From a virus, in the IMG/VR virus record IMGVR_UViG_3300025913_000021, positions 64,001-128,000 of that record: 64,000 nt of DNA, one strand, 5' to 3'. Below the pieces are notes generated by a model that was not told the origin of the DNA, did no database searches, and saw only the letters and a program-made list of their open reading frames with translations. The translations under genes and the position numbers were made by a program. The stretch's first letter is position 1, and every line of letters starts with the position of its first letter. This document shows positions 152 to 51,292 of the stretch, one piece after another.

Positions 152-481
152 GTGAGCAAGCTGAGCCCGCGCGTGCGCAAGATGTTCGACGAGCTGGACA
201 GCAACCCACACATCATCGAGCTGGCCCGGCGCGTGCACCCGACGTGGGTCGCGGCCAACGGTCACATGAACGACCTGGGTGTCGAGAAGCTGACCCGCGA
301 GATCGCACAGTGCATCGCCGCCATCGAGCACGCCCGCGAGGAGGGCGAGGACATGCGGCTGCGCTACGTCATCGGTCACGGCATCGTCGTGACCGCCGGG
401 GGCCTGGCCGAGGAGAACTACCGCGTCGCCGTCGTCGCAGGCGAGGCATTCGGACTGCGCATGCAGATGGGGGTGGAGTGA
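152..481 (+). CDS. hypothetical protein
   Basis: GTG start overlaps the upstream stop (ccGTGA) after a GAGGAGG RBS; its own stop overlaps the ligase ATG. Confidence 0.7.
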   Translation: MSKLSPRVRKMFDELDSNPHIIELARRVHPTWVAANGHMNDLGVEKLTREIAQCIAAIEHAREEGEDMRLRYVIGHGIVVTAGGLAEENYRVAVVAGEAFGLRMQMGVE

Positions 482-1491
482 TGTTCAACGTCATGCTGGC
501 CGTCAGCGCCCCGGCGACCGAGGAGACCATCGAGCGTCTCCAGGGCACGCACTTCTTCGACCTCAAGATCGACGGCGTGCGCGGCATCATGGCCGTGAAC
601 AACGGGACGGTGAAGCTCACCAACCGTAACGGCGTGGACATCACCTACCGCTACCCCGAGCTGGTCGCGGCGGCGCTGGAGAAGTTCGGAACGGACGCTC
701 GTCTGATTCTCGATGGCGAGATCGCCGCCACCGACGAGCGCAACCTGCCCAGCTTCAAGAACACCGCCAAGCGCGACCGGCAGCAGCGCAACAACGTCAT
801 CGCCGCCCTGGCCGTGAGCATGCCGGTAAACTTCTACGCCTTCGACCTGCTCTACAAGGACGGCGTGGACTTCCGACGGCAGCCGTGGTCGCAGCGCTCG
901 GCGTTCCTGGACGAGGTAATCGCGGACAGCCCGCCGCACCCGAGGATCGTGCGCAACATCGGTTCGCCCGACGGTGCTCGCATGATGGAGCTGGTCCGGC
1001 AGCACAGGCTGGAGGGTCTGGTCGCCAAGCTGAGCACCGCTCCGTACGAGGCCGGTCGCCGCAGCCAGTGGATCAAGATCAAGCCCACCGAGAGCAGCTC
1101 GTTCCTGGTGACGGGCACGACGACAGGTACCGGCTCGCGCCAGGAGACCTTCGGCGCGCTCAGCTTGGCGGTCGTTCGCGCCGACGGTACGTTGCTCCCC
1201 GTCGGCGAGGTCGGCTCCGGCTTCAAGCAGCGGGACCTGACCGAGGTGCTCGACATCCTCGCGACCGGGGCTGACCTGATCGTGGAGGTCGAGTACCAGG
1301 AGGTCACCGTGGATGGCGCGCTCCGCTTCCCGGTGTTCAAGGGCATCCGCACTGACCTCACCCGTGCCGACGCCAACGAGAGCCAGCTAGGAGCCTCATG
1401 CGTGAACTCAGCGTCGTCCTCGGCGATGTCATCGACGAGCACGTCCACTGCCGCTTCTACCTCAAGAGTGACCACGGTCGCCGGGCTCTAG
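481..1491 (+). CDS. ATP-dependent DNA ligase (adenylation + OB domain)
   Basis: Motif I K-I-D-G-V-R, LDGEI, FYAFDLL, EGLVAK, WIKIKP, VGSGF, LRFPVFKGIRTD; start chosen at ATG 481, which overlaps the upstream TGA. Confidence 0.92.
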   Translation: MFNVMLAVSAPATEETIERLQGTHFFDLKIDGVRGIMAVNNGTVKLTNRNGVDITYRYPELVAAALEKFGTDARLILDGEIAATDERNLPSFKNTAKRDRQQRNNVIAALAVSMPVNFYAFDLLYKDGVDFRRQPWSQRSAFLDEVIADSPPHPRIVRNIGSPDGARMMELVRQHRLEGLVAKLSTAPYEAGRRSQWIKIKPTESSSFLVTGTTTGTGSRQETFGALSLAVVRADGTLLPVGEVGSGFKQRDLTEVLDILATGADLIVEVEYQEVTVDGALRFPVFKGIRTDLTRADANESQLGASCVNSASSSAMSSTSTSTAASTSRVTTVAGL

Positions 1492-1798: not shown

Positions 1799-2193
1799 GC
1801 ACGGTCGCCACTCCGACTGACGTGAGCCTTGCGCACTGCTCGTGCAGCTCGTGCACTAGGAGGTGGAACGAGTTGAAGTTCACGCGCGGCCACACTCGCG
1901 TCAACGGCCAGTACCAGTGCCCGGGTTACCTCGACCAGGACCGGATGTGCCTGGCCCGCTTCAACACCCCGGGCGGTTTGCGTCGCCACATGAAGAAGCA
2001 GGGGCACGGCGAGCCGTACTTCCGCTACGCCCGTCACCTGTCGAAGGAGTCGCTCACCTGCCAGACCTGCGGCTTCGTGCCGTGGGAGCTGGCGGACAAC
2101 CCGCGCAAGGGACTCGTGGATCACCGACGCAAGCGGCACCGCCTGGAGTACATGCGCGAGCGCAGGCCCTACACGATCGAGGAGGAACCCTAG
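1795..2193 (+). CDS. C2H2-type zinc-finger protein; ends YTIEEEP
   Basis: CPGY...C...F...GLRRHMKKQGH and CQTC...GLVDHRRKRH. Confidence 0.7.
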   Translation: MSTVATPTDVSLAHCSCSSCTRRWNELKFTRGHTRVNGQYQCPGYLDQDRMCLARFNTPGGLRRHMKKQGHGEPYFRYARHLSKESLTCQTCGFVPWELADNPRKGLVDHRRKRHRLEYMRERRPYTIEEEP

Positions 2194-7863: not shown

Positions 7864-8631
7864 ATGAGCATCAGTTTGGAAAAGCGCGTCGAGGCCGCCG
7901 CCGTCTCGCTCCAGAAGATCGCGGCCGACAGCAAGATCGACCTCGGTGACGTGTGCGCCCAGGTCGATGTCGCGATCGACTACTCCGGCTCGATGGGTGG
8001 GCGGTACCCACACGAAGTGCAGGAGGCGGTCGAGCGGATGCTCGCGCTGACCCTCACCGGCCTGGACGACGACGGCGTGGTGCCGATCTACCCGTTCAGC
8101 AACAAGCTGCACGACGCCGACGACCTGACCGCCGCGAACTACGTCGGCTGGGTCGAGCGGTTCTGCCAGCGCAACCGCATGGGCGGCACCGCCTACGTGC
8201 CATTCCTGGAGAAGATGCTCGGCAAGAAGAAGCGCTTCGGCGGCAGCAACGAGAAGGACCAGCCGCCGTTCTTCCACATCGTGTTCACCGACGGCGAGCC
8301 GACCGACTCCAAGCGGTCGATCGAGAAGCACATCGTCGAGGCGCGCGAGCGGCCGCACTTCATCCAGTTCGTGCTGCTCGGCCGCGACCCGGAGGGCCGG
8401 GCGTACCTGGAGCACCTCAACAACCACCTCACGCAGCCGGACCCGAAGAACTGCCGCACGTGCAAGGAGCTGGGCACGCAGGCGGCAACGGCGGGCATCG
8501 ACAACGTGGGTCTGACGGTCTACGCCGACCGCCCGCCGACCGACGACACCGGCTTCTTCAACGACACCATCCGGGAGTTCTTCCTGGACTGGCTGCCCGC
8601 TGCTCGCCAGAAGGGCTACACCACGCGGTGA
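7864..8631 (+). CDS. von Willebrand factor A domain protein (TerF-vWA-like)
   Basis: MIDAS DYSGSM, GGT, VFTDGEP, LDDDG, FIQFV, IDNVG. Confidence 0.85.
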   Translation: MSISLEKRVEAAAVSLQKIAADSKIDLGDVCAQVDVAIDYSGSMGGRYPHEVQEAVERMLALTLTGLDDDGVVPIYPFSNKLHDADDLTAANYVGWVERFCQRNRMGGTAYVPFLEKMLGKKKRFGGSNEKDQPPFFHIVFTDGEPTDSKRSIEKHIVEARERPHFIQFVLLGRDPEGRAYLEHLNNHLTQPDPKNCRTCKELGTQAATAGIDNVGLTVYADRPPTDDTGFFNDTIREFFLDWLPAARQKGYTTR

Positions 8632-11817: not shown

Positions 11818-12326
11818 GGCCGCGTCGTCACGAAGCGAGCGACGTGATCTGCCTGGCCGTGCCCGACGGCGTGGACCCGCAGGACGAGAACTTCGTCAAG
11901 ACGCTCGACGCACTGGCCTGGGAGAACGTACGCAAGCAGTTCTCCCAGCACGCACGGCTCACGCTCACCGAGCGGCACACCGAGTGGCTGATCACCAACG
12001 ACCCGGAGAAGGTCGAACAGTTCCAGCCCGCCCACGACTGCGAGGAGTGCCACGCGGGCAACGTCAAGGCCAAGGCGTTCCTGATCGCCAACCCCACCGC
12101 GACGGTGGCGATGGGCAACGTCCACTACGTCGAGGTGTGGCCCGAGTACGACCTGCCCGCCGACCTGGACGACAAGGAGCGGAACTGGGTCACCGAACTG
12201 CTCGACGCCGACGACCGGATCACCGTGCCCCAGGCGATCGAGCTGATCAACTTCGCCAAGCAGAAGGGCGACGAGCTGCGGCGACTCAACGAGGAGAAGG
12301 CGAAGGCGGGATGGAAGCAGATCTAG
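11814..12326 (+). CDS. hypothetical protein
   Basis: GTGA overlap; HDCEEC. Confidence 0.6.
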   Translation: MRPRRHEASDVICLAVPDGVDPQDENFVKTLDALAWENVRKQFSQHARLTLTERHTEWLITNDPEKVEQFQPAHDCEECHAGNVKAKAFLIANPTATVAMGNVHYVEVWPEYDLPADLDDKERNWVTELLDADDRITVPQAIELINFAKQKGDELRRLNEEKAKAGWKQI

Positions 12327-12649
12327 ACGACGTGATCGGCACCGTCCGCTGGTTCGGCAAGAGCTGGGGCGCGCCGGTCTGCGATCCTCGTGCGCACATT
12401 CCGACGCCCATCGGTTCCCGCTGCGAGGGGTGCGGTCATCCGGTCACCGAGGACGACAACGGCGTGACCATGCCGTACTGGGACGGAACCTCTCGACCGG
12501 GCTTCGTCGCGTTCCACCGCGAGTGCAATCTGCGGCACGTGATGGGATGCTCGGCCAGCCTGCGCGGCGAGGGTCACGACCACGAGCGGGACTACCGCGA
12601 GGACGCCCTAGCGGTCGAGCAATGGATCATGCAGAATCCGCTACGCTAA
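12311..12649 (+). CDS. Cys/His-rich hypothetical protein
   Basis: CEGC...HREC...HDH. Confidence 0.55.
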   Translation: MEADLDDVIGTVRWFGKSWGAPVCDPRAHIPTPIGSRCEGCGHPVTEDDNGVTMPYWDGTSRPGFVAFHRECNLRHVMGCSASLRGEGHDHERDYREDALAVEQWIMQNPLR

Positions 12650-12704
12650 CCGAACGTTCACCATCGTCCCTCGCGTGAGGGATCCTGGCCCCAGGAGGCC
12701 GAAC

Positions 12705-13688
12705 ATGACTCAAGTCGCACGTGGTGCATTCGGCACCGCCAAGGCGAAAGCCTTGAACTTCCAGCCGATGCCCACCATGAAGGAGTACCTCGACCAGCTC
12801 GCCGCCGAGGGTCGCAGCCCCAGCCACATTCGTCTGTGCCGGGCGGCGCTGCACCACCTCAACGAGCACCTGCGCAGCCAGGGCGTGCTCGTCCCGCAGG
12901 ACATCCGCCGCGAGCACCTGATCCTGTTCCAGGGCTGGGTGAACAACCAGGCGTGGCAGCCGAGCTACCGGGTCGAGCTGCTCAAGAAGGTCAAGCACTG
13001 GCTCAAGTGGCTGGTGCAGGTCCGCTACATCCCGGACACCCCGTGGATCGCCATTCGGACGGGCGTCACTATCAAGCAGCCGAAGCCGCTCAGCAACGAC
13101 GAGCTGGAGGAGCTGTTCGCTCGCCACCGGCAGGACGCCTTCTCCGTCACGCCGTTCACTTACCACCGCCGCGAGGTCATCCTCGTCATGCTCTACGGCT
13201 GGGGCCTGCGCATCCATGAACTGTGCGCCCTGGACGTGGCCGACCTGGCGGTCGAGAAGCAGTTCGTCCGGGCGATCAACAAGGGCGGCAGCTTCAAGAC
13301 GCTGCCCTACCTCGACGAGATCAAGAACTCGTGGCGGCGCTACGAGGGCTGGCGGGTGCGCTACGCACCGAAGGACCAGGAGGCCGCGTTCATCAATCGG
13401 GGCGGCAGTCGGATGACGACCGGGGACGTGTGGGAGATCGTGCACGACCTCGGCGAGCGCTCCGGCGTGCGCGTCAACCCGCACCGCTTCCGGGACACCT
13501 GCGCGACCACGCTGCTCGACTCGGACGTGGCTGTGGAGCGCGTGGCGGTCATCCTCGGCCACAAGAACATCAAGACCACGCTCGGCTACGGCAAGGTCAA
13601 CGACCACAAGGTCGCCGAGGCGCTGGACGGTGCGATGAGCACCCAGATCAACGGACTGATCTTCGGACGAACGAAGGACATCGCATGA
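12705..13688 (+). CDS. tyrosine recombinase/integrase (XerC/D-like)
   Basis: Catalytic R (GLRIHEL), K (NKGG), HxxR (PHRFR), LGH, Y (TTLGY); N-terminal SAM-like core-binding domain; AGGAGG RBS. Confidence 0.92.
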   Translation: MTQVARGAFGTAKAKALNFQPMPTMKEYLDQLAAEGRSPSHIRLCRAALHHLNEHLRSQGVLVPQDIRREHLILFQGWVNNQAWQPSYRVELLKKVKHWLKWLVQVRYIPDTPWIAIRTGVTIKQPKPLSNDELEELFARHRQDAFSVTPFTYHRREVILVMLYGWGLRIHELCALDVADLAVEKQFVRAINKGGSFKTLPYLDEIKNSWRRYEGWRVRYAPKDQEAAFINRGGSRMTTGDVWEIVHDLGERSGVRVNPHRFRDTCATTLLDSDVAVERVAVILGHKNIKTTLGYGKVNDHKVAEALDGAMSTQINGLIFGRTKDIA

Positions 13689-14023
13689 GCTACTGCCGCT
13701 TCGGCTGGGGACCGAACAACGAGTTCCCCGGCACACCCGAGGCCGAGGCCGCTGGTGCCTCGGACCTCTACCTGATCGGGACTTCGCGCATCTACGACCC
13801 GGAGACCGGCAAGGAGACCCACGGCATCGAGTGCTGCGGCTGCATCCTCACCCCCGTGGGCTTCCCGTTCTTCACCGAACTGCCCAAGATCCTCGCCCAT
13901 TTGGACGAGCATCGGAAAGCTGGCCACACCGTGCACCCGTGGGTGCAGCCCGACATCGAGGCCGACTTCCAGGACGGGATCTACAGTCCGCCCTGGATCG
14001 CAGGGAAGCTGGGGCGCACGTGA
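13685..14023 (+). CDS. hypothetical protein
   Basis: MSYCRFG...ECCGC...HLDEHRKAGH. Confidence 0.65.
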   Translation: MSYCRFGWGPNNEFPGTPEAEAAGASDLYLIGTSRIYDPETGKETHGIECCGCILTPVGFPFFTELPKILAHLDEHRKAGHTVHPWVQPDIEADFQDGIYSPPWIAGKLGRT

Positions 14024-15506: not shown

Positions 15507-15728
15507 GTGAGTGACGGCGGCGAGGAGCTGCTGACCGGCGTGATCGCCGGGTCGCTCTCGCAGCTCACAGGCGTCAGCTTCCCTATCAAGATCAAGGCCG
15601 TGAACGTCCTCACCGACGCGAACGGCGACTACCGACGGGTGGTCGAGGTCGAAATGGCCAGCGGGACGTACTACGTCTCAGTCACGCCATACGATCCCGA
15701 GACCCCCGTCATCGAGGAGGAACCGTGA
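15507..15728 (+). CDS. hypothetical protein; ends PVIEEEP
   Basis: ORF within the overlapping gene chain. Confidence 0.6.
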   Translation: MSDGGEELLTGVIAGSLSQLTGVSFPIKIKAVNVLTDANGDYRRVVEVEMASGTYYVSVTPYDPETPVIEEEP

Positions 15729-15956
15729 GCAACAAGAACGATCTCTACAACGCCCGACACCGGCTGCCCACCGACGGCAGCGTGCGCGGCAACGACGGCC
15801 GCGTCTGGCACCCCAAGGGCGAGGGCAAGTGGTGGTACACCGACGAGCGCTACGTCGCCGCGATCCCGACCAGCGTGCTGAGCCAGATGCACGGCCCGCT
15901 CATCAAGGTCGAGGAGCCGAAGCCCACCCGCGAGCTGCCGGTGAAGGCGATGCCAC

Positions 15957-16601
15957 GTGGTTGATCTCCCGGATGGGATGCCCGTCGGAATCGCCAAGCT
16001 GCCGCTGAACAAGGTCGGCTACCCGGTGCCGTGGTTCGTGTGGACGAACCCGGACACCAACGAGCCCGACTTCCGCGTCGTGAAGCCCGGCGCGATCCGA
16101 GCCGCGCTCACGCAGAACCTGTGCTGGATCTGCGGCGAGTCCATGATCGGCACCCAGGCGTTCGTCATCGGCCCGATGTGCGCGGTCAACCGCACCAGCG
16201 CCGAGCCGCCCTCGCACCTGCTCTGCGCGCGGTGGGCGGCTATCGCCTGCCCGTTCCTCGCCCGGCCGGAAATGGTCCGGCGTGACCACTTCGACTTCGA
16301 GCACGTGGGCATGGCGGGTGAGGCGATCCTGCGCAACCCCGGCGTGGGCCTGGTGTGGCCGACACGGCGCGGTGAGTGGTCGGTGTTCCAGGTACCCAAC
16401 GGCATCCTGTTCCAGATCGGTGAGCCCGTCAGGGCCCCGGAGTGGTACGCCCACGGTCGGGTCGCCACCCGCGAGGAGGCCGAGCACTCCATCGACACCG
16501 GCCTGCCGTCGCTGCACAAGATCGCAGACGAGGAAGGGCCGGACGCCCTGGAGGAGCTGGACCGGCTCGTCGGCGTGGCTCGGACGTTCCTGCCGGTCTG
16601 A
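15957..16601 (+). CDS. conserved Cys-rich hypothetical protein
   Basis: YPVPWFV, LCWICG, EPPSHLLCARWAAIACPFL. Confidence 0.75.
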   Translation: MVDLPDGMPVGIAKLPLNKVGYPVPWFVWTNPDTNEPDFRVVKPGAIRAALTQNLCWICGESMIGTQAFVIGPMCAVNRTSAEPPSHLLCARWAAIACPFLARPEMVRRDHFDFEHVGMAGEAILRNPGVGLVWPTRRGEWSVFQVPNGILFQIGEPVRAPEWYAHGRVATREEAEHSIDTGLPSLHKIADEEGPDALEELDRLVGVARTFLPV

Positions 16602-16882
16602 TGACCGAGCGGAAGCGGCGGCGACTCACCGACTGGGACGCGATCCTGCGCAACCTCCGCCTCGGTGACCTGCGCTACCGCTACTACACGAACACCGATC
16701 GGATCGCGCTCTATACGACCGTCCGTCTGTATGAGGGCGGGGACTACCTGGCTGCCCTGGTCGAGCGAGACGGGACGGTCCTCATGCGAGCCGAACGGCC
16801 ACTGGCCCGCGAGGTGCGCGACCTGTGCCGCATGTGGTCGAAGGGCTTCGCTGTGGCGTACGAGATCAAGGAGGAGCCGTGA
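16601..16882 (+). CDS. hypothetical protein; ends YEIKEEP
   Basis: TGATG junction. Confidence 0.6.
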   Translation: MTERKRRRLTDWDAILRNLRLGDLRYRYYTNTDRIALYTTVRLYEGGDYLAALVERDGTVLMRAERPLAREVRDLCRMWSKGFAVAYEIKEEP

Positions 16883-17128
16883 GCCTCAACAGGGCACGCA
16901 ACGGCCTGGTCACCACCTTCCTCTCCCTGGAGGAGGTGGACACGCTCGCGCGGGGACTGGCTCGTCTGGTCGTCCCCGACTCGGACGCCGAGGATGCGCA
17001 CGACGCCTCTCGGCTGATCTACATGAACGGCGCGCAGTTCACCGGCCCGAAGGAAGAACTGATGCGCATCTATTCGATGGCAACCCACCTGGCCGAATTG
17101 AGGAACGACCTTGCCCGCGAAGAACCGG

Positions 17129-17593
17129 ATGCAACTGATCCGTGAGGCCCAGACGCTCGACGAGCTGTACGCGATCGTGCCACAGCCGATCGACTGCACC
17201 GGGGAGTGCTGGGACTCCTGCGGCCCGATCGGCTACAGCGTCGAGGAGGGCGAGCGCATGGATGCGATCGGCCGACGACCACCGAACGCGCATGAGCGTC
17301 GGCACCGCCTCATGTGCTCGGCACTGACCAAGGACCACAAGTGCTCCGTCTACGAGGCACGGCCGATGATCTGTCGGCTGTGGGGCGTGAGCGAGACGAT
17401 GCCGTGCCCGCACGGCACACCGGACAAGCCGTGCTGGACGGCGTTCCCACTGACCCCCGAGGAGAGCGCTGCTCTCTTAGGTCGGGCGCAGGAGATCGGC
17501 GGCACTCCCGAGGGAGTGCGTCAGCGCTACATGATCAAGCACGACGACCTGACCGAAATCATCCGACGCAAGCCCAGCTCTTGGGATCTCTAG
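17129..17593 (+). CDS. YkgJ-like Zn/Fe-S cluster protein, paralog 1
   Basis: CTGECWDSCGP...CSALT...CSVYEARPMICRLWG...CPHG. Confidence 0.8.
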   Translation: MQLIREAQTLDELYAIVPQPIDCTGECWDSCGPIGYSVEEGERMDAIGRRPPNAHERRHRLMCSALTKDHKCSVYEARPMICRLWGVSETMPCPHGTPDKPCWTAFPLTPEESAALLGRAQEIGGTPEGVRQRYMIKHDDLTEIIRRKPSSWDL

Positions 17594-17601
17594 GGGGAAC
17601 C

Positions 17602-18516
17602 ATGACCACCACACCGACTGACACCGACGCCACCACCGAAACGAACGAGTGGCAGTTTCCGATCGAGGCCGTGCTGGAGTACCACAAGGCCCGCATCGCA
17701 GGCAACGAGGACCACGTGCCCGCGATGGTCGAGGCGTGGGTCGAGGGCGAGGGCCCGGTCTGGAGCGCGATGGTCGCCGACGTGGGCGAGTCCAGCCCGC
17801 GTGACTGCGCCCTGTTCGCCGCGTCGATCATGTCCAGGATCACCGGGGCCGACTACATCCTGTTCTGCGTGGACACCCACATGAGCCACTCTCAGGTGAA
17901 TCCGACGACGGGCAAGCCGTGGGCACCGGGCGAAATGCAGCGCATGTGCGACGAGGAGGGGTACTGCGACACCGGCAACATCCGCGACAACCTCATGGTC
18001 GCGATCGTGCGGCGCTCCGACGCGAAGATCTACATGACCGGCATCCCGTACCACTTCCACAAGGGCGAGGTCATGTACTTCGACCCGCAGCCGCCGATGG
18101 ACGAGTGGAACGACGAGGGCGGCGTGAAGCAGATGGGCGGCACCATCCCCGACACCCTGCGCCAGGTCATACAGCAGCCGCCGCTCAGCGAGCAGCTCAC
18201 GCAGATGGGTGCGTACGAGGCGATCGGCTTCGACGGTCCGTCGAACATCACCCGCCTGCACCAGATTCTGGCGGGCATCCGTGTCATGGGGAAGGTCGCC
18301 GTGGACACCGGGTGCGAGGGTCCGATGTTCCTGCACATGATCCCGACGAGCACCGACGAGGAGCGTCAGATCATGGACGACTTCTCCAAGCGCGACGACA
18401 TCACCAACCTGGCCGAGTACGGCGCGGAGGAGCCTGAGCCCTCGCTCGCGGAACAGATGGGCGCTGCTCCCACCACGATCGAGGAGGAGCCCGGTGACGA
18501 ACCAGCCCAGCCATGA
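17602..18516 (+). CDS. hypothetical protein
   Basis: GGGGG RBS, 304 aa; TTIEEEP lies near the C-terminus. Confidence 0.7.
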   Translation: MTTTPTDTDATTETNEWQFPIEAVLEYHKARIAGNEDHVPAMVEAWVEGEGPVWSAMVADVGESSPRDCALFAASIMSRITGADYILFCVDTHMSHSQVNPTTGKPWAPGEMQRMCDEEGYCDTGNIRDNLMVAIVRRSDAKIYMTGIPYHFHKGEVMYFDPQPPMDEWNDEGGVKQMGGTIPDTLRQVIQQPPLSEQLTQMGAYEAIGFDGPSNITRLHQILAGIRVMGKVAVDTGCEGPMFLHMIPTSTDEERQIMDDFSKRDDITNLAEYGAEEPEPSLAEQMGAAPTTIEEEPGDEPAQP

Positions 18517-18910
18517 CGAGTTCAAGCTCACCTACGCTCCGATCCTGACCTGGGAGAGCCAGGTCTCGCAGTACCCGGAGCGGGGTGAGCCGAACACGAT
18601 CGAGCTGTTCCTGGGTGACGAGAGCGAGAACTTCCCCGGCAAACCGCCGATCAACTGCCTGCTCTGGCGGGACGGCGACGGCCTGATCCGAGGCATCCTC
18701 AACCACTACCCGGACGACTACCCGCCGTACGAGCAGCGCGGCAACATCAACGTGTTCGTGCAGCCCGGGTGGAAGCGGCGCGGGATCGGCACCGCCTTGT
18801 GGGACAAGGCGATCGAGCTGTTCGGCGAGCCGAACTACCACCAGCAGACCTACAGCCCCGAGGGCATCCAGGCCGTGCTGCGCTACCGGAGGAAGCATGG
18901 ACTCGACTAG
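18494..18910 (+). CDS. GNAT-family acetyltransferase
   Basis: Motif A VFVQPGWKRRGIGTALW. Confidence 0.8.
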   Translation: MTNQPSHDEFKLTYAPILTWESQVSQYPERGEPNTIELFLGDESENFPGKPPINCLLWRDGDGLIRGILNHYPDDYPPYEQRGNINVFVQPGWKRRGIGTALWDKAIELFGEPNYHQQTYSPEGIQAVLRYRRKHGLD

Positions 18911-19382
18911 CCTGTCCGGGCTCAACGGCCAGTGCGCGATTTGCCACCGGGTGCTCGACTGGGAGACCGACCTGGACGGCAGCAACGGTCACTGGGTGCA
19001 CACGTTCCAGGACCGACTGGTCGAGGACCACGAGCCGGTGTGGGCACCGGAGGGCACGGACACCGAGTTCCGCTGCGACTTCTGCAACCTCAATGGCCCG
19101 ACGTTCTTTCTGCCGTGCAGCGATTTCCAGTACCCATCCCAGATGGGCGTGAGCGTCGGCGAGTGGCTGGCCTGCGGCGAGTGCGCTCCGCTGATCTCCC
19201 AGGACCAGTGGCTCGCAGTGGGCGAGCGGGCGATCACCGTCAGCCCGACCATCGCCTACCAGATCCGCGAGAACCTGATGAGCCGACACCAGGCACGCGA
19301 ACTGATCAACAAGATCTACCGACTCGTGCGAGAGCACGCCACCGGGCCGTTGCAGCCCTGGACACCAGGGCGGGAGGGATAG
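18897..19382 (+). CDS. Cys-rich hypothetical protein
   Basis: CAIC, CDFC, WLACGEC. Confidence 0.7.
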   Translation: MDSTSLSGLNGQCAICHRVLDWETDLDGSNGHWVHTFQDRLVEDHEPVWAPEGTDTEFRCDFCNLNGPTFFLPCSDFQYPSQMGVSVGEWLACGECAPLISQDQWLAVGERAITVSPTIAYQIRENLMSRHQARELINKIYRLVREHATGPLQPWTPGREG

Positions 19383-19384
19383 CC

Positions 19385-20443
19385 ATGCCCGCTACCGACG
19401 CACTTCACGTCCGCACGCAGGTTGCGGAGCAGCTACAGGGTCAGACCTTCCGCACGATCATCGACGCCTTCGTGGGTGATGACTTCAATCGGATGCGCGG
19501 CCAGAAGCAGAACGTCCACGACACCAGAAGCACGGCCGGGGCGATCAATGCGAACCAGGCCCCGGCGTTCCGCGCGGAGGCGTTCGCCAACGCGATGTCC
19601 ATCGCCGAGACCTTCTACCTCAGCCCGGAAATGCACGCGATCTGCCAGGACGCCAGCCAGGCCGAGGACTTCCCCGAGGACGAGACGATCCTGCGCGAGG
19701 ACCCGCCGAGCGAGGCCGGGTTCCTGTTCCTGCCCGCGCGCTTCCGCATGATGGAACTGCGCGGCCGACTGATGATCGCGCACGCCGTGGTGTGGATCAA
19801 CAACAAGGTCTGGTGGCTCTGCGACCGGCGTGACCCGGACGACGAAATGAACGTTGAGCTGAATGCGGCGTACGGCGGACACGGTCAGGTTGGCCTGCCA
19901 CGCTACGACCTCATGGCGGTGAGCAGCTTCAAGTGGGGTGAGCCCATGCCGAAGATGATCACCTTCGAGAAGGGCGTGCTGCCGACCGATGCCAAGGTCG
20001 AGTTCAAGGACGTGCCGTTCGAGGGTGGCACCCGGCGCATCCTGTTCACCGACGCGCTCGTCCATCCCGGCCTGAGCAAGCCGCAGGCCACGGTGTCGCC
20101 CGAGCTGCGGTTCCTGCTCACCGTCTGGCGCATGATGCAGCAGACGATCACCGACGTGGTGGACGAGTACCCGGACAACAAGGCCGTCCGTCGCTACGCC
20201 GACCGCGCCGGGATCAAGGACCAGCGCATCCGCGTGATTCAGCTCCGTCGCCGCGAGAGCCACCAGACCGGCCAGGGCTCGCCGCTGACCGTGCGCTTCG
20301 TCGTGCGTGGCCACTGGCGACGCATCTGGTGCGGCCCGGCCGAGAACCGCTACCAGCGCGCGATCTGGATCCACCCGCACCTCAAGGGTCCGGAGGGTGC
20401 CCCGCTGATCCACCGCGAGAAGATCAACGCCCTGGTGCGATGA
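19385..20443 (+). CDS. conserved phage protein with C-terminal VRGHWR motif
   Basis: RFVVRGHWRRIWCG...IWIHPHLKGPEGAPL. Confidence 0.75.
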   Translation: MPATDALHVRTQVAEQLQGQTFRTIIDAFVGDDFNRMRGQKQNVHDTRSTAGAINANQAPAFRAEAFANAMSIAETFYLSPEMHAICQDASQAEDFPEDETILREDPPSEAGFLFLPARFRMMELRGRLMIAHAVVWINNKVWWLCDRRDPDDEMNVELNAAYGGHGQVGLPRYDLMAVSSFKWGEPMPKMITFEKGVLPTDAKVEFKDVPFEGGTRRILFTDALVHPGLSKPQATVSPELRFLLTVWRMMQQTITDVVDEYPDNKAVRRYADRAGIKDQRIRVIQLRRRESHQTGQGSPLTVRFVVRGHWRRIWCGPAENRYQRAIWIHPHLKGPEGAPLIHREKINALVR

Positions 20444-20655
20444 ACGGACACGTGGTCGTTTTGATCGTGGCCGTCGTGGGACTCGTGACGGTCTGTGTGT
20501 TCATGTTCCTCATGGTGCGCGCGAGCAGGAACCTACGGATCTCGGCCGAGAACCTCCAGCATGCGGCCGAGGACTATCGCGACTCGATGGACGACCTGAA
20601 CACCTTCCTGTTCCGGTCGGTCAACGGCGAGCACACCGTGGAGGAGGAGCCCTAG
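20440..20655 (+). CDS. small membrane-anchored protein; ends HTVEEEP
   Basis: N-terminal TM helix followed by a coiled segment. Confidence 0.65.
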   Translation: MNGHVVVLIVAVVGLVTVCVFMFLMVRASRNLRISAENLQHAAEDYRDSMDDLNTFLFRSVNGEHTVEEEP

Positions 20656-20871
20656 GTGGACTACTCGGTGGCGCTGTTCGAGGCTGCTCACGACCCGCAC
20701 GTATGCCTAAGGCGATTCGCCAACGGTGACATCGTGACGCAGCACTGGCCGAAGAAACGAACCGACGAGCGGCCGACCTGCCGGTACTGCCTGATGCTGA
20801 TCAAGAAGGTCGAAACGCATGCGGCGTCTCGGTGGGCCGCTGTCGAGTACATCGTGGAGGAGGAGCCCTGA
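20656..20871 (+). CDS. small hypothetical protein; ends YIVEEEP
   Basis: GTG directly follows TAG; CRYC. Confidence 0.6.
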   Translation: MDYSVALFEAAHDPHVCLRRFANGDIVTQHWPKKRTDERPTCRYCLMLIKKVETHAASRWAAVEYIVEEEP

Positions 20872-21407
20872 TGGGCATGCTCGCGCGCCTGGAGGCGCTG
20901 TACGCCGAACTGCCCGAGGTGGCCTGCCAGGGCAAGTGCCAGACCTGCTGCGGACCCATCGACATGAGCCCGGGAGAACGACTGCGCATCCGTTCCCAAG
21001 GCGTCGAGATCCAGCCGATGACCAGCGCGCGAGTGCGAGCCTGGGAACGCCAGCAGAAGTACGACGACGACGGCGAGCCGCTGTGGTGCAACGCGCTGAA
21101 CCTGGACACCGGGCTGTGCGAGGTCTACGAGATCCGTCCGATGATCTGCCGCCTCTGGGGTACGGGCAGCGGGGAAATGGCCTGTCCGCACGGCTGTAAG
21201 CCCACCAGACGGCTCTCGGACATCGAGACGATGCAGTTCCTGCTCCGGGCTATGGCGGCGGGTGGTGGCTTCACTGAGGCCGAGTACGCCCGCATGCAGG
21301 CACTGTTCGACGACCCGGAAATGGCCCGGCGCACGACCGAGTACATGGAAGCTGACCCCGAGACCCGACAGCGGATGCGCGACGAAATGGATGGGCGGCT
21401 GAACTGA
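20871..21407 (+). CDS. YkgJ-like Zn/Fe-S cluster protein, paralog 2
   Basis: CQGKCQTCCGP...CNAL...CEVYEIRPMICRLWG...CPHGC. Confidence 0.82.
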   Translation: MGMLARLEALYAELPEVACQGKCQTCCGPIDMSPGERLRIRSQGVEIQPMTSARVRAWERQQKYDDDGEPLWCNALNLDTGLCEVYEIRPMICRLWGTGSGEMACPHGCKPTRRLSDIETMQFLLRAMAAGGGFTEAEYARMQALFDDPEMARRTTEYMEADPETRQRMRDEMDGRLN

Positions 21408-21602
21408 ATGTTCTACTGCAAGGACTGCGCCGACATCACCGGCTGGCCCGAGCTCGGCTTCTCGGTCGGCCGGTGCGAAATGTGCGAGCGGGGCAGCATG
21501 CTGTGCTCCGACGTGCCGAGCAAGTACCTCTCCATCCCGACCCAGGAAATGCACACGCGCATCCAAGGTCTCAACCCACATCGGATCCAGGAGGAGCCGT
21601 GA
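21408..21602 (+). CDS. small Zn-ribbon protein; ends HRIQEEP
   Basis: MFYCKDC...GRCEMC...CSD. Confidence 0.65.
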   Translation: MFYCKDCADITGWPELGFSVGRCEMCERGSMLCSDVPSKYLSIPTQEMHTRIQGLNPHRIQEEP

Positions 21603-26387: not shown

Positions 26388-26774
26388 ATGCCCGCGCCCG
26401 AGGAGCCCGATCCGCTCGACGACATCAGCACTGCTGCGCTCAGGGCGGCGCTGGAGCGTCGGGGGTATGTCACCCTCACGGCGAAGTCCTACAAGGCCGC
26501 ACAGCGCCGCCAGGGGATCGCGCAGAGCCGCATGGCGTGGGCCGAACGAGAGGCCGAGAGCGCTCGGAGCTGGGCCTACGACTGCCTGGCCGAGGAGCGT
26601 CGTCTGCACGCCCGACTGAACGAGATCATCGCCCTGGCGACGCAGCACGGGATGACCACGGAGGATCTCGTCCGCTTCAACGAGCAGCTCGGACTTCGGG
26701 GCGCTCTGCCACCGACCACCGTCGTGCCCGAACTCCCAGGGGCCGTCACTCATCGCATCCCGGAGCAGCCGTGA
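26388..26774 (+). CDS. hypothetical protein; ends HRIPEQP
   Basis: TAGGTT -10-like box 7 nt before the ATG (leaderless). Confidence 0.6.
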   Translation: MPAPEEPDPLDDISTAALRAALERRGYVTLTAKSYKAAQRRQGIAQSRMAWAEREAESARSWAYDCLAEERRLHARLNEIIALATQHGMTTEDLVRFNEQLGLRGALPPTTVVPELPGAVTHRIPEQP

Positions 26775-27028
26775 CCCTGCCACAGGACGACGCCGACCTG
26801 TCCCCGCAAGTGCTGCGGGAGTACGCGATCCAATGCCTGCGCCAGGCTGGGACCTTCTCGTACCTGCCGTACACCCCCGCAGCGCCGGTCGCGCAGCCGG
26901 GCTTCACTGCACCGCAGCCGCTCCCGACACCGGATGCGCGCCCGAGCGGCATCCTGTACGCGCTCCAGGGCCTGCTGGCCATGCAGATCGCGAACTCGAT
27001 CACGCACGTCATCGAGGAGCACCCATAG
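26771..27028 (+). CDS. hypothetical protein; ends HVIEEHP; last plus-arm gene
   Basis: GTGA overlap; stop is followed directly by a hairpin. Confidence 0.6.
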   Translation: MTLPQDDADLSPQVLREYAIQCLRQAGTFSYLPYTPAAPVAQPGFTAPQPLPTPDARPSGILYALQGLLAMQIANSITHVIEEHP

Positions 27029-27029
27029 A

Positions 27030-27064
27030 TGAGCCCCTCCGCACGGGGGAAACGGAGGGGCTCA
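27030..27064. terminator. 12-bp GC-rich hairpin at the convergence of the two arms
   Basis: TGAGCCCCTCCG / CGGAGGGGCTCA perfect inverted repeat. Confidence 0.75.
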
Positions 27065-27218: not shown

Positions 27219-27238
27219 CGAGAGCATACCGAACATCG

Positions 27239-27311
27239 TCCGGGTGGAGGGACTCGAACCCCCGATCCCTTGGTCCCAAACCAAGTGGCCTAGCCGCTGG
27301 CCTACACCCGG
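27239..27311 (-). tRNA. tRNA-Pro(TGG)
   Basis: Acceptor CCGGGTG/CACCCGG, anticodon arm CTTGG-TTTGGGA-CCAAG, T loop GTTCGAGT; no encoded CCA. Confidence 0.92.
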
Positions 27312-27327
27312 GTGCGGGTTGCGATTG

Positions 27328-27400
27328 CAGGGGCGGTAGGACTCGAACCTACGGATGCCGGGTTTGGAAGCCGGTGCTCTTGCCGCTGAGCTACACCCCC
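27328..27400 (-). tRNA. tRNA-Trp(CCA)
   Basis: GGGGGTG-TAGCTCAG D arm, anticodon loop TTCCAAA, T arm GTAGG-TTCGAGT-CCTAC; G73; no encoded CCA. Confidence 0.88.
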
Positions 27401-47178: not shown

Positions 47179-50100
47179 CTCGGGATGCTTGCGCCGTCCA
47201 GGTGGATCGTGTCGGTGGTCAGCGAGTCCACGATGTCGATCGTGTTGTAGTACGAGTGCAGCGTCCGTGTGACGTACGCGCCAGCCACGCCGTCGTAGGC
47301 GGTGATGGGCATGTAGCAGTGCTGCGTGTCGGGACGCATGTCGCTGTCGAGTTCGCAGATCACGGCCCCGGCCGTCCCTCCGGTGATCGACCCGTGCAAC
47401 CGGATCCGGTCACCCTCGATAGACCATGAGGGAGCGTCGAGGGCCGTCCAGCCGTTCAGGAGCATGAGCGGCACGCGGGTCTCGCGCAGGTAGTTGGTTC
47501 GGATGCGCGTCCATTGCTGCGCCTCGTAGATCGCGAGGTTGCTGATCTGCACCGGACCAGTGGTGCCACTGTCCCCCGTGGAGCCGCCCAGGAAGAAGTA
47601 GCCGCCCTCGTACGAGGTGCTGTCCAGGTAGGCGTAGCTGGTGAACAGCTTCGTGCCGTCCATGTAGATCGACAACTGGAAGCTGCCCGGCTGCTGGAGG
47701 CTGTCCAGTGAGAGGCGGATGTCCCAGTGGTGACTGCCGGTCGTGTACGCCGAGCCGGGCTGCGGACTGGCCCCGAAGAAGCCACTGCTGCCGACGTGCG
47801 ACATCCCGACCGTCGGCTCGAAGGCGAAGAAGTTGCCGGTCTCGTTGCCCGCGCCATACGCACCGCTCGCTCCGCGCGCCAGCGGCAGCGACCCGGCCCA
47901 TGCCTTGTACGGCGGCGTACCGATGTCACTCAGGAGCGAGGCCGAACTGAACCAGCCGAACGAGAAGCCGCTGGCTGCATCGGGAACGTCCGCATCGAAG
48001 CTGATGTGCAGCCCATCCATCGCGAGCCGATTGATGTGCACCATGAGGCCCGCGCTCGCATCCGAGCTGGTGGTCAGTGAGGCCACACCGGAGCTGTCGA
48101 GAGTGGCGTCCTGGACGTGGAGCCAGAAGCTGTCGTCGGAGCCGTCGGTGGGCCAGTGCTGCATCGCTGCGGTCCCCGGCTGCCACTGTCCGCCGCCGTC
48201 GTCCCATACCGCTCGCAGCAGACCGCCCTGGTGATGCACGAAGTCGCTCTTGAAGATCGAGCCGGTGATGGTGCCGTAGAAGCCCATGTCCACAAGACCG
48301 CGAGCGGTACCGCCGCCACCGCCGCCGCTGTCCGTGCCGTCGGTGATCATGTTCCACACGCCGCCGACGCTCACGTAGAGCGCGTAGTTCGCCAGGTCGA
48401 TGGCCAGTACCCGGTCGGGCACGGTGACCGAGGGGGCACCGTAGGAGACGATCGGCGTCAGCGGCTGCCACTGACCGTCCCCGAACGAGCCGTAGAGCAG
48501 GCTCGCGTTGAGGTCGAGCCAGACGCTGCCGACCGGCGCAATGCCAATCGGAGGGCCACTGCTGACGTGCGTGGTCGGCTTCTGTTGCCAGCCGCTCGGC
48601 GCGATCGAGTCGGCCAAGATCACATGAGAGAGACCGAGCGAGGCGTCGGCACAGGCAGAGCCATTGCCCATGTGCCACCCGATGCACCCGCCACCGAAGT
48701 CCTGGGTCATCGGCGGGAGGTGGAACACGCCCAGCGGGATCGGGTTGCCGGGATCGCCCGCGTCGTAGAGGCACATCGTGTTGCCGGAGCAGATCACTCG
48801 CAGGTTCCGGAGACCGCCAGTCGTGCCCGGCATCGAGGTGGTGCCGTAACCGATGACCGAGTGCACGCCGCCCACGAGCAAACGGATGGTCATCTGTTCC
48901 GTGTTCGGATTCATCTCCAGGTAGATGCCGTTGAGCCCATCGTCGCTGGTGCGCAGCAACGGCCCGTGCATGGAGCCGAGGTCGGTGACGTTCTGCCAGG
49001 CGAACGTCACGTCGATGTCGTGAGCACGAATGTCGCTGATGATCGACGCCAGCCCCCCGGTGTCCCCGGACTCGAAGCGCAGTAGCGGAGGTCCGAGGGT
49101 GAGCGTCGTACCCCACACCGACGAACCGACCGGCGTCCACGGCTCGGCACCGCGCCAGGCACTGAGATCCACGACGCTCGGCGATTCAGCCGGTACGCCA
49201 CCGCTGATCGCAGCAAAGACGAGCTGCGTCGTCACGCCACGCATGACACCCATGCCGACCGGAGCCGAGGAGCCGATCGAGGTCCAGTACAGGTTGGTGT
49301 CGCTGGCACAGCTCGCGCTGTTGGCCATGAAGCCCGAGTTGTTGCCCCGTGCAATCCCTGGAGTGAGCGAGAAGCTCTCGTAGGCGACCGTGTAGGGCGC
49401 ACCGCCCGGATCGGGGCGCACCCAGACGCGCAGCACGTCCTCGTACAGGCTGACCCATGCGTCCGGCGTCGTGTTGGCGACGAGAGGGTCACCGAACGTG
49501 CCAAGCGAAGTGAGAGCACCGCTCTCGATTCGGTACATCGTCGGCGAGGCACCGGGTGTGAGTGACAGGTACCAACCGTTCTTGCCGTCGGCGGTCGCGC
49601 CGATCACCGCACCCGCGTCCACCCCGTCAGCTCCGAGGTGCATCGCGAACACGAGCTGATGCTCGATGCCACCGAAGGGCCGCAGCACCTGGGCCTGATT
49701 GGTGAGCGGGTCGGTCGAGGTGACCATCGCGGCCGACACGGGTCGCCCGTCGTAGTGGCTCGGGGTGCCGAAGCCACCTTGGACGGTCGTCCACTGCGTG
49801 ACCCCGAGCGCCAGGGCCTGCGCATCGCTGGTGGTCTCGGTCGAGGGTCCGATAATCGACGCTCCACTGGCACCTGCGGAATCGTCGCCCGTGAAGTCGG
49901 TCTGCTGGAAGTAGCTGCTACCGGTGAAGGTGAACTCACCGCGCGTGCGCACGTACACCTGATCGCCGGGCACGAACACGTCGCCGTCGGGCGGGGGCAG
50001 GCGGTCCATCGACGCCAGTGCGGCCCGGAAGCGCCGCACGATGTCGGCCGTGAGTGCACCCTTGATCATCGTTCCCGAGAGGTGCGCCTGTGCCGTGGTC

Positions 50101-50456
50101 CCCAGCTCGCCACGAACCACCGCGAGGGTCAGTGTCGTGAAATCGACGCTCGTCAGTTTCACTATCTCGAACGTCGCCGGGTGCACGAGATCCGACTCGA
50201 TGGTCAGGTACAGCGGAGCCTTCGCCAGCTCCGCATCGGTCGGGAACGTGCTCACGTCGTCCACGACGATCGAGGTCACCGCGTCGTCGATGTCACCGTC
50301 CAAGGTGGCGAACACGAAGTCGCGCACCAGCGGCACGGTCGGCGTCGGCACCACCTGTGCTGGGGTCGTGTCCAGCGGTGGGCCCGGCGCAGTCGAGAAC
50401 GTGATCGTGCCACCCGTGACGGTGGCACTAGCCGGGACGAGGGTGAGCGTGGCCAT
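47169..50456 (-). CDS. large tail fibre / receptor-binding protein
   Basis: 1095 aa, Gly/Thr-rich; N-terminal EIVK...L.V.RG.LGTTA.AH; several lectin-like beta domains; C-terminal LLNGW...L.G module. Confidence 0.7.
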   Translation of the reverse strand: MATLTLVPASATVTGGTITFSTAPGPPLDTTPAQVVPTPTVPLVRDFVFATLDGDIDDAVTSIVVDDVSTFPTDAELAKAPLYLTIESDLVHPATFEIVKLTSVDFTTLTLAVVRGELGTTAQAHLSGTMIKGALTADIVRRFRAALASMDRLPPPDGDVFVPGDQVYVRTRGEFTFTGSSYFQQTDFTGDDSAGASGASIIGPSTETTSDAQALALGVTQWTTVQGGFGTPSHYDGRPVSAAMVTSTDPLTNQAQVLRPFGGIEHQLVFAMHLGADGVDAGAVIGATADGKNGWYLSLTPGASPTMYRIESGALTSLGTFGDPLVANTTPDAWVSLYEDVLRVWVRPDPGGAPYTVAYESFSLTPGIARGNNSGFMANSASCASDTNLYWTSIGSSAPVGMGVMRGVTTQLVFAAISGGVPAESPSVVDLSAWRGAEPWTPVGSSVWGTTLTLGPPLLRFESGDTGGLASIISDIRAHDIDVTFAWQNVTDLGSMHGPLLRTSDDGLNGIYLEMNPNTEQMTIRLLVGGVHSVIGYGTTSMPGTTGGLRNLRVICSGNTMCLYDAGDPGNPIPLGVFHLPPMTQDFGGGCIGWHMGNGSACADASLGLSHVILADSIAPSGWQQKPTTHVSSGPPIGIAPVGSVWLDLNASLLYGSFGDGQWQPLTPIVSYGAPSVTVPDRVLAIDLANYALYVSVGGVWNMITDGTDSGGGGGGTARGLVDMGFYGTITGSIFKSDFVHHQGGLLRAVWDDGGGQWQPGTAAMQHWPTDGSDDSFWLHVQDATLDSSGVASLTTSSDASAGLMVHINRLAMDGLHISFDADVPDAASGFSFGWFSSASLLSDIGTPPYKAWAGSLPLARGASGAYGAGNETGNFFAFEPTVGMSHVGSSGFFGASPQPGSAYTTGSHHWDIRLSLDSLQQPGSFQLSIYMDGTKLFTSYAYLDSTSYEGGYFFLGGSTGDSGTTGPVQISNLAIYEAQQWTRIRTNYLRETRVPLMLLNGWTALDAPSWSIEGDRIRLHGSITGGTAGAVICELDSDMRPDTQHCYMPITAYDGVAGAYVTRTLHSYYNTIDIVDSLTTDTIHLDGASIPRWQ

Positions 50457-50848
50457 CAGACCCCCGTGATCGTGAACGCCTGGCCGTTAGCGGTGAGCAC
50501 CTCGGCGCTCAGCGTTTGGGTGGACCCGGCATCGACGCAGAACAGCGGTCGGCCGCTGTTGTCCAGTGCGATGGCGAAGCGCCAGTTCGCCACGCTCATC
50601 GCCGGGAAGGACAGCCCCTTGCTGCCCAGACCGTAGTTGCCGGTGTTGCCGGTGCCCGAGCTGTCGTTGGCGATCTCGCCAGTGCCGCGCGAGTACGAGG
50701 CGTCGGTGCACTCGGACGGCGTGATGTCGCTCAGCGCATGCGTCGCGCTGAACACGTAGGTGTCCACGGCCAGCAGCATCGAGATCGAGCCCCAGTCGCT
50801 CGCCGGGTTCGACTGGAAGAAGCTGTCATACAGGGAGACGTTGGTCAT
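50456..50848 (-). CDS. minor tail protein
   Basis: TGATG junction; position; resembles the adjacent tail protein. Confidence 0.55.
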   Translation of the reverse strand: MTNVSLYDSFFQSNPASDWGSISMLLAVDTYVFSATHALSDITPSECTDASYSRGTGEIANDSSGTGNTGNYGLGSKGLSFPAMSVANWRFAIALDNSGRPLFCVDAGSTQTLSAEVLTANGQAFTITGV

Positions 50849-51285
50849 CAGGTCTCCTTCGCCACGAGCGATCCGGCCGAGAAGGATGGTCCTGGACCGG
50901 CGACGACGACCGTCGGGGTCAGGTCCGAGCCGTAGAGCACGTTGTCGGCGCTGGTCTTGGCGTTGCCGTCGCACAGGTAGAAGCTGCGCACCGTGCCGTA
51001 GCCCGAGCCGGTGACCGTCGGCCAGTTCGCGTCGAGCAGGTTGGCCTTCTGTCCCGTGCTGTCGGCCAGCGGCCAGAAGGTGCCGTCGTTGGGGACCTCG
51101 ATGCGGTCGTAGGCGGTGCCGGTCCCGCTGACCTCGTTGGTGAGGATCGACGTGCCATCCGTACTGGCCGCGAACACCGCCGTGGACAGCGCGATCCACA
51201 GGTTGGTCGGCGGTGTCCAGATCGTCTGCCCGAGCGCGTGGTCGAGCAACGCCTTCTGGAGGTAGATGCACTTGCCGCTGGCCAT
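50848..51285 (-). CDS. phage tail fibre-associated protein
   Basis: YLQKALLDH.LG...PT.LWIALST...EVSG...YDR...F.AGSL. Confidence 0.7.
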   Translation of the reverse strand: MASGKCIYLQKALLDHALGQTIWTPPTNLWIALSTAVFAASTDGTSILTNEVSGTGTAYDRIEVPNDGTFWPLADSTGQKANLLDANWPTVTGSGYGTVRSFYLCDGNAKTSADNVLYGSDLTPTVVVAGPGPSFSAGSLVAKET

Positions 51286-51292
51286 GTACGCC

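Follow-up and report, generated by a model that had tools for sequence, protein, structure and literature searches.

A recurrent C-terminal heptapeptide at overlapping gene junctions of a large actinobacteriophage-like virus

Why should gene after gene in one viral genome end in Glu-Glu-Pro (E-E-P), with the codons of that ending placed where the next gene needs its ribosome-binding site? The question is raised by a stretch of 64,000 nucleotides (the window), bases 64001-128000 of the 149,260-bp IMG/VR virus record IMGVR_UViG_3300025913_000021. A first-pass annotation of this window had pointed out six junctions at which the same bases encode E-E-P-stop and form a Shine-Dalgarno (SD) sequence for the following gene, and had proposed that a ribosome pausing at the stop codon could hand over to the next gene, throttle it, or mark the upstream protein for degradation. 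All six junctions read as claimed (Table 1). At each of them GAGGAGGA or GAGGAGCC lies 4-8 nt upstream of the next start, the overlapping or abutting start is the sole candidate preceded by an SD, and the alternative starts have lower codon-usage scores, except for a marginal +2.1 for ATG 21662. The other proline endings listed in the same annotation (EEGQP at 155, GGP at 1634 and AQP at 18516) are also present.

The virus is large, uncultured and actinobacteriophage-like, and the record has a GC content of 66% and a CheckV completeness estimate of 88%. Gene calls and starts come from our own codon-usage caller, with no curated annotation behind them, and this caller gives about 274 genes that cover 91% of the record. 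The rightward arm, at genome 35-89 kb, is filled with small genes, mostly of unknown function, as are two runs of leftward genes at 3-27 kb. From 91 kb onward, as far as the record extends, a leftward arm carries the virion, lysis and replication genes, including those for a primase/helicase, a ribonucleotide reductase, a LysM protein and a 2427-aa protein.

Among the called genes, 52 end in Pro and 22 in E-E-P, compared with 0.11 terminal E-E-P expected from the internal frequency of the same pattern. Counting back from the stop codon, with Pro at -1, we found 34 genes that end in [I/V/L/M]-x-E-x-P, and in these Ile occupies -5 in 31/34 and Tyr, His or Phe occupies -7 in 29/34. The heptapeptide counted as [YHF]-x-[IV]-x-E-x-P, of which ..Y-V-I-Q-E-E-P is the commonest form, was seen 29 times at gene ends, with 0.04 expected. 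The invariant positions of this tag are -7, -5, -3 and -1, and the variable one is -2 (E, L, T, H, Q, V or W). The E-E-P ending is thus real and far above chance, as had been noted, but it had been under-described: it is part of a seven-residue ending, aromatic at -7 and with Ile at -5, on 34 genes, in both early/accessory arms.

The tag is carried by 12-16% of the phage genes, roughly one in eight, all of them accessory or early. Not one of the 69 genes in the virion/replication arm is tagged despite the 32 tight junctions and 2 Pro ends found there, compared with 34/205 elsewhere (Fisher p=3e-5). The 34 carriers are 40-243 aa long (median 87), and BLASTP among them gave no match of one to another at E<=1e-3. 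Where domains can be recognized they are mutually unrelated (a YspA-type SLOG domain, DUF7448 and a methyltransferase-like fold), and one carrier is an ORFan when set against 5.8 billion clusters. SLOG/YspA, DUF7448 and methyltransferase-like proteins and ORFans therefore all end in one short peptide, which is what one would look for in a shared recognition peptide.

Selection on an appended peptide is shown by conservation that is phased with the codons, synonymous variety within them, retention in orthologues, and the position of the tail outside the protein fold. Relative to untagged genes, nucleotide conservation spans -21 to -2 before the stop: it sets in sharply with base one of codon -7, its last base is the middle one of the Pro codon, and none was seen upstream of the tag, in or after the stop, or at the third base of the Pro codon. 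The conserved stretch amounts to 21 nt with 60-100% conservation per position. Every synonymous codon of Ile, Tyr, His and Pro is used within the tags, and Tyr, His and Phe interchange at -7. At Glu(-3), GAA is used in 3/34 tags, which equals the genome background of 10.5%, so no added pressure to keep GGAG is detectable at this codon. GGAGG is broken in the variants ELP, ETP, EHP, EQP, EVP and EWP, all of which keep the I-x-E-x-P frame.

In three protein families, orthologues encoded by related uncultured phages retain the ending although the rest of the protein has diverged. In the methyltransferase-like family, I, E and P are invariant in P0002-P0007 and P0027 (45-68% identity), where they follow a linker whose length varies, while the remaining 112 retrieved homologues stop no more than a few residues past the last strand of the domain (..YRRK); further scans with this family, which we used as controls, gave only relatives at <=48% identity, with no recurrent tail. 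In the DUF7448 family the tag is present in P0122, P0144 and P0145 and the variant P-[I/V]-F-x-E-x-P in P0140 and P0159, and about 55 other members end otherwise. All five homologues (37-74% identity) of the protein encoded at window 16601-16882 end in [Y/H]-x-I-x-E-x-P, one of them with an extra Ser. The sister record G001 has an open reading frame (ORF) ending in YEIEEEP-TAG, followed by an 80-nt gap. Conservation in orthologues and absence from distant homologues are both expected of a recognition peptide that was appended. In an AlphaFold2 model of the methyltransferase-like protein, pLDDT is 96 to about residue 229 and then falls to 67 and 55, placing the tail outside the confident fold, and in a model of a 93-aa protein Y-x-I forms an edge strand with E-E-P at low confidence. 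The tag is a peptide under selection, appended to otherwise unrelated proteins. Four methyltransferase-like homologues from other metagenomic phages (P0012, P0064, P0098 and P0115) end in ..[E/N/D]-[D/N/V]-[R/A]-W, which may be another lineage-specific tail.

Based on these results, the explanation that we favor, though with some reserve, is that the junctions are the 3' ends of genes carrying a lineage-specific C-terminal peptide tag, and that the codons of this tag have been co-opted for ordinary coupled translation. The tag would have been appended to about 34 unrelated small accessory proteins, with about 12 more carrying a copy a few residues before their ends. Selection would act on the peptide, whose Glu codons spell GGAGG and whose CCG or CCA codon, together with TGA, spells GTGA or ATGA. 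The resulting layout would be ordinary overlap with termination-reinitiation, fine-tuned at synonymous sites. Features in the window are listed in Table 1.

Table 1. Tags, tag variants and an associated hairpin in the window (window coordinates; the column headed Named marks the six junctions of the first-pass annotation)
Feature	Position	Strand	Named	Context
Tag YTIEEEP + TAG	2170..2193	+	yes	Next gene ATG 2194, gap 0
Tag YEIEEVP + TAA	2661..2684	+		Free-standing; next start 65 nt downstream with its own cccAGGAGG
Tag PVIEEEP + TGA	15705..15728	+	yes	Next gene GTG 15725, 4-nt overlap
Tag YEIKEEP + TGA	16859..16882	+	yes	Next gene GTG 16879; ending kept in five orthologues
Extended copy TTIEEEP-GDEPAQP + TGA	18472..18516	+		Motif 7 residues before stop
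Tag HTVEEEP + TAG	20632..20655	+	yes	Next gene GTG 20656, gap 0
Tag YIVEEEP + TGA	20848..20871	+	yes	Next gene ATG 20871, 1-nt overlap TGATG; carrier protein is an ORFan
Tag HRIQEEP + TGA	21579..21602	+	yes	Next gene GTG 21599, 4-nt overlap
Tag variant HRIPEQP + TGA	26751..26774	+		GGAG only; next gene GTG 26771
Tag variant HVIEEHP + TAG	27005..27028	+		Last gene of plus arm; no coding ORF after it
Hairpin, 12-bp stem, terminator-like, -24.9 kcal/mol	27030..27064	+		Directly 3' of last tagged gene

The simplest competing account would be that nothing special is happening, and that codon bias, an SD placed inside the upstream gene, and ccGTGA or ccATGA overlaps together yield E-E-P. It is true that GAG makes up 90% of Glu codons in this genome. 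It is also true that GGAG in untagged tight junctions is mostly written xxG-GAG, that is, as Glu (28/38), as this bias predicts. The first-pass annotation had itself cautioned that ccGTGA and ccATGA overlaps favor a terminal Pro. That caution holds, although the effect is small: in control phages Pro is terminal in 10.9% of genes overall and in 14.5% at NN[A/G]TGA ends, with 0 EEP. However, 442 genes from unrelated high-GC phage loci include 0 EEP and 0 I-x-E-x-P ends, and the late arm of the phage itself has 0 EEP. Of the 104 untagged tight junctions of the genome, 35 carry a GGAG no more than 18 nt from the start, and these genes end in EGK, EGG, EVTA, EGFR, EVEL, ELGL and others, with no fixed tail. 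Ile(-5) and the aromatic residue at -7 fall outside any SD, and free-standing and internal copies of the tag exist. The comparisons with untagged junctions, control phages and the late arm already refute this account, which we regard as scarcely credible. The SD overlay by itself does not explain the tag.

Leader regions in this genome use a different ribosome-binding context. Their SDs read cccAGGAGG with a spacer of mostly 5-7 nt, compared with 4 nt in the tag junctions with a 4-nt overlap, and the 21-nt tag motif was found in none of the leader regions. CCC[A/T]GGAGG occurs 19 times on the plus strand, with a called start 4-12 nt downstream in 12 cases, and 6 times on the minus strand, never before a start; this recurring leader motif (for example at window 1619, 2735 and 12690 and at genome 28767-50009) is separate from the tag.

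The coupling layer is nevertheless prominent. A start lies adjacent to 24 of the 34 tags, overlapping by 4 nt at 18, by 1 nt at 4, and directly abutting at 2, and these include all six named junctions. The same 24 tags therefore have the overlap or near-zero spacing of stop and start expected of coupled pairs, and 21 of the 24 junctions also have the expected intragenic SD, with GGAG within 18 nt of the start. The first G of GGAG is mostly 9 nt before the start at tag junctions, compared with a commonest distance of 12 nt at untagged ones. Termination-reinitiation coupling is known to act on stop/start overlaps with an intragenic SD (Huber et al. 2019, PMC6728339). Because the tag codons spell GGAGG and GTGA or ATGA, the phage uses the DNA of the tag as the SD and GTG or ATG start of the next gene in about 70% of cases. 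The Pro codon at the end of the tag is CCA in 6/34 cases versus a background of 6% (p=0.016), with 4/6 of them forming ATGA, and Glu(-2) is GAA in 7/22 versus 10.5% (p=0.006), nearly all at coupled junctions. These skews at CCA(-1) and GAA(-2) are signs of tuning at the nucleotide level, over and above the peptide. The phage carries a tRNA-Pro(UGG) that may serve the rare CCA codons at tag ends.

Several points weigh against putting the peptide first and the coupling second. An adjacent start is commoner in tagged genes (24/34) than in untagged genes of the same arms (72/171; odds ratio 3.3, p=0.003), a contrast that may be somewhat inflated, as our start caller rewards starts preceded by an SD; given this excess, a coupling role may help to keep the tag. 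Every tag in orthologues and variants keeps E(-3) and P(-1), which a reading of the ending as an arrest peptide also predicts. Finally, all of the gene calls come from our own caller.

Some copies of the tag lie away from a start or a stop. At least eight canonical tags have no nearby start (genome 34591, 27403, 16566, 16387, 15879 and 13729; window 2684 and 27028), and for two of these the tagged gene closes its transcription unit, with a hairpin of 12-13 bp after it. The hairpins, with a 13-bp stem at L007:15592-15645 (+) and the 12-bp stem of Table 1, have no T-run, follow immediately on the final genes of two rightward units, and are probably factor-independent terminators of the actinobacterial type. 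Twelve more copies of the tag lie 1-22 residues before the stop, compared with 3.5 expected (p=3e-4). Of these, five continue as P-x-x-x-D-L and two as P-G-R-D with different codons, so that some of the proteins may have a longer, bipartite motif.

The five longer endings, of the form I-x-E-x-P-[D/S]-x-x-D-L, are IQEEPDLMDL, IQEVPDLQDL, IQEEPDQADL, IEEEPSALDL and IFEEPSTADL, each in a different protein, and the other two proteins have I-x-E-x-P followed by G-R-D(-G). Sites of extended tags are at genome 11503, 21825, 43533, 56693 and 57118 (loci L006-L009) and in the window as listed in Table 1. At two minus-strand stops, genome 13729 and 22180, the genes end in ..P-TAG and are followed by a near-identical CG(T/G)T(A/C)GGCGGTCGT, a short repeated post-stop element. 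Directly after the TAA of the free-standing tag that ends at window 2684, CCGAACA occupies 2685-2691, in the 65-nt gap before a DUF6744 gene.

The model in the first-pass annotation was that the nascent ending, in full ..I-x-E-E-P, slows termination in the manner of YbeL or TnaC, and so throttles the ribosome or hands it to the overlapping start, or exposes the protein to transfer-messenger RNA (tmRNA). Its background on Escherichia coli is sound: wild-type YbeL ends in E159-P160, and Pro-Pro-stop stalls termination (PMC3834316). According to that paper and papers cited there, termination in E. coli is hindered by a C-terminal Pro and by the penultimate residue, and C-terminal Pro motifs also trigger ssrA tagging. 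The phage endings have much in common with this, with Pro before the stop in 34 genes and Glu at -2 in 22, with conserved residues at -3, -5 and -7 that would sit in the upper exit tunnel, and with 24/34 tags that abut a start. The part of the model that stands is that the same bases form a conserved peptide end and the SD and start of the next gene; pausing as the reason for the motif is not supported, given the tags without an adjacent start and the 12 copies without a stop.

At the tags without a start there is nothing to hand over to, two of them stand before hairpins, and a regulated target is not found at each copy. The 12 internal copies run on for 1-22 residues, seven of them with conserved continuations, and orthologue P0189 ends in ..EEPS; Pro-tRNA in the P site with a stop codon in the A site is implied by the 34 genes, but not by these copies or by P0189. 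The residue at -2, a known modulator of termination beside Pro, is the most variable position of the tag, and the stop codon and the following (+4) base are used as in untagged genes. Tight junctions in the virion arm, where stoichiometric coupling matters most, are never tagged. When CCN occupies the P site, GGAGG would end just 2 nt upstream of it, which is short for SD pairing by a paused ribosome, so pairing of that ribosome's own anti-SD would be strained. In the phage genome we found no tmRNA, no RF-1-domain protein and no peptidyl-tRNA hydrolase (Pth). We consider pausing an unlikely basis for the motif. A wider version, in which the tail acts inside the ribosome on about 34 early/accessory genes and one host or phage factor is a master valve for all of them, seems to us less likely still. 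If it were true, the valve factor would be a release-factor activity, tmRNA, elongation factor P or an unknown ligand, it would set both protein output and the hand-over of ribosomes to the next cistron, and a post-translational role might coexist with it.

A second possibility that takes the nucleotides as primary comes from the closest analogue at the nucleotide level, the start-associated sequences (SAS) of cluster K mycobacteriophages, which have the 13-bp consensus GGGATAGGAGCCC, lie 3-7 bp before starts of non-structural genes only, and are of unknown function (Pope et al. 2011, PMC3203893). The tag would then be an RNA- or DNA-level signal, bound by a factor or by the ribosome to initiate the next gene, and the peptide would be incidental. 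The tag shares AGGAGCC(C) with GGGATAGGAGCCC, and like SAS (PMC3203893) it has conserved bases that are unable to pair with 16S rRNA. It is likewise confined to non-structural regions, in one orientation, just before starts, and the tuning at GAA(-2) and CCA(-1) is of the kind that such a signal would show. However, the consensus and the frame-independent repetition of SAS were not found. A search of the 149 kb on both strands with GGGATAGGAGCCC gave 0 matches at <=1 mismatch and 1 at 2 mismatches, and the tag motif is always in frame at the 3' end of a gene, with conservation that follows the codons. The interchange of residues at -7, and the ELP, ETP, EHP and EQP variants that lose GGAGG and keep the peptide, do not fit a nucleotide signal; neither do the lack of any leader region with the motif, the copies without a start, and the retention of the tag by protein orthologues at 37% identity. 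A SAS-like signal is therefore a very improbable basis for the tag.

A third possibility is that tag, stop and start together form a recombination joint for swapping unrelated mini-genes, with little function in the peptide itself. Tagged mini-genes do occur in a tandem run at genome 15.9-19.6 kb, their cargo is unrelated, and homologues outside the lineage lack the tail. Against this, conservation is limited to the 21 nt of the tag, with nothing beyond it on either side, and orthologues keep the key residues unchanged while their linkers vary in length and their x positions drift, which argues for purifying selection on the peptide. As a full explanation a cassette joint is improbable. It could explain how the tail was acquired, but not why it was retained, and to that extent it is compatible with a peptide tag whose codons were co-opted for coupling.

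We also considered the ESX secretion motif, YxxxD/E. Y(-7)...E(-3) fits it numerically, but we rejected it as weak, given that His or Phe replaces Tyr in a third of the tags; the i, i+2 periodicity of the tag, which suggests a strand and not a helix, also disfavors it.

If the ending is a peptide tag, as we favor, what reads it? Since one heptapeptide is found on dozens of unrelated proteins and is kept down to 37% body identity, a single reader is implied. A single shared partner may recognize the tag post-translationally, as a signal for docking or turnover, and the tag may be displayed in extended-strand form, with one face bearing Y, I, E and P. A candidate partner would be the phage's own pair of a bpMoxR AAA+ protein and a VWA protein, or else a host factor. 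The genes for this pair are side by side, with bpMoxR at genome 48515-49765 and the 649-aa VWA protein at 50024-51973 (L008:10515-11762 and 12024-13970, +). A search of the phage proteins found no ClpP and no PDZ domain. Six tagged genes lie within 4 kb after the bpMoxR/VWA pair, and a vWA-TerF-like protein is encoded at window 7864-8628.

Other genes in the record include a RuvB-like ATPase and a tyrosine recombinase. Ku (genome 44446-45243) and an ATP-dependent DNA ligase (window 481-1491) resemble a non-homologous end joining pair, and such Ku/ligase pairs are also present in some mycobacteriophages. The tRNA genes are tRNA-Pro(UGG) and tRNA-Trp(CCA) at window 27238-27311 (-) and 27327-27400 (-), and tRNA-Met(CAT) at genome 5742-5816 (-). 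Neither megablast nor blastn gave a DNA-level match of the region to GenBank phages, and scanning IMG/VR for exact DNA copies of the tag junction gave four matches, all unrelated and due to chance. When IMG/VR was scanned with a virion protein, the sigma factor, MoxR and the 352-aa protein encoded in the region, a single true sister fragment turned up, G001, which mainly covers the virion arm and has 69% identity in a virion protein; the rest were distant phages.

The dual coding of the junctions is real, but we believe it is the less interesting layer, as an overlapping stop and start with an internal SD is textbook coupling. The more interesting layer is that one heptapeptide has been appended across accessory and early genes and retained by relatives. 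Possible roles for it are timing of turnover, delivery to a remodeling machine, or docking on a host hub. The junctions are also a clean natural test bed for how far the same bases can answer both to coding (the tag) and to translational signalling (SD and start), and the tag is of use in annotation, since in this phage group it helps to tell which small genes, and which of their stops, are real. In a search of the literature on peptide strings and shared phage C-terminal motifs, which was not exhaustive, we found no paper on such a system.

How does the tag compare with known systems? Tagging by tmRNA at the E-P-stop of YbeL and at Pro-Pro-stop was reportedly described by Hayes, Bose and Sauer in 2002. 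With these cases and with TnaC-type arrest the phage endings share a Pro at the stop codon, with an acidic residue preceding it and conserved positions higher in the chain. They differ in that -2 varies here, copies occur away from the stop, and about 34 genes share the peptide instead of one regulatory leader; there is no evident effector or regulated target in the phage. With termination-reinitiation coupling (PMC6728339) 24 of the 34 tag junctions, all six named ones among them, share co-directed genes, overlap by 4 or 1 nt or zero spacing, and an SD in the last codons of the upstream gene. The known cases have no conserved upstream C-terminus, whereas here the same seven residues recur, even where no gene follows.

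With SAS (PMC3203893) the tag shares a repeated AGGAGCC element just upstream of starts in non-structural regions of actinobacteriophages. It differs in that SAS is a nucleotide motif largely outside reading frames, while the tag is the last seven codons of a gene and varies as a peptide does. C-terminal recognition peptides on unrelated proteins are well known from the ClpX signals of the ssrA and MuA type, the XB tail of SspB and the clamp-binding tails of T4 proteins. All of these share with the phage tag a short terminal peptide outside the fold, with conserved residues that imply a common reader. [quoted passage not shown]

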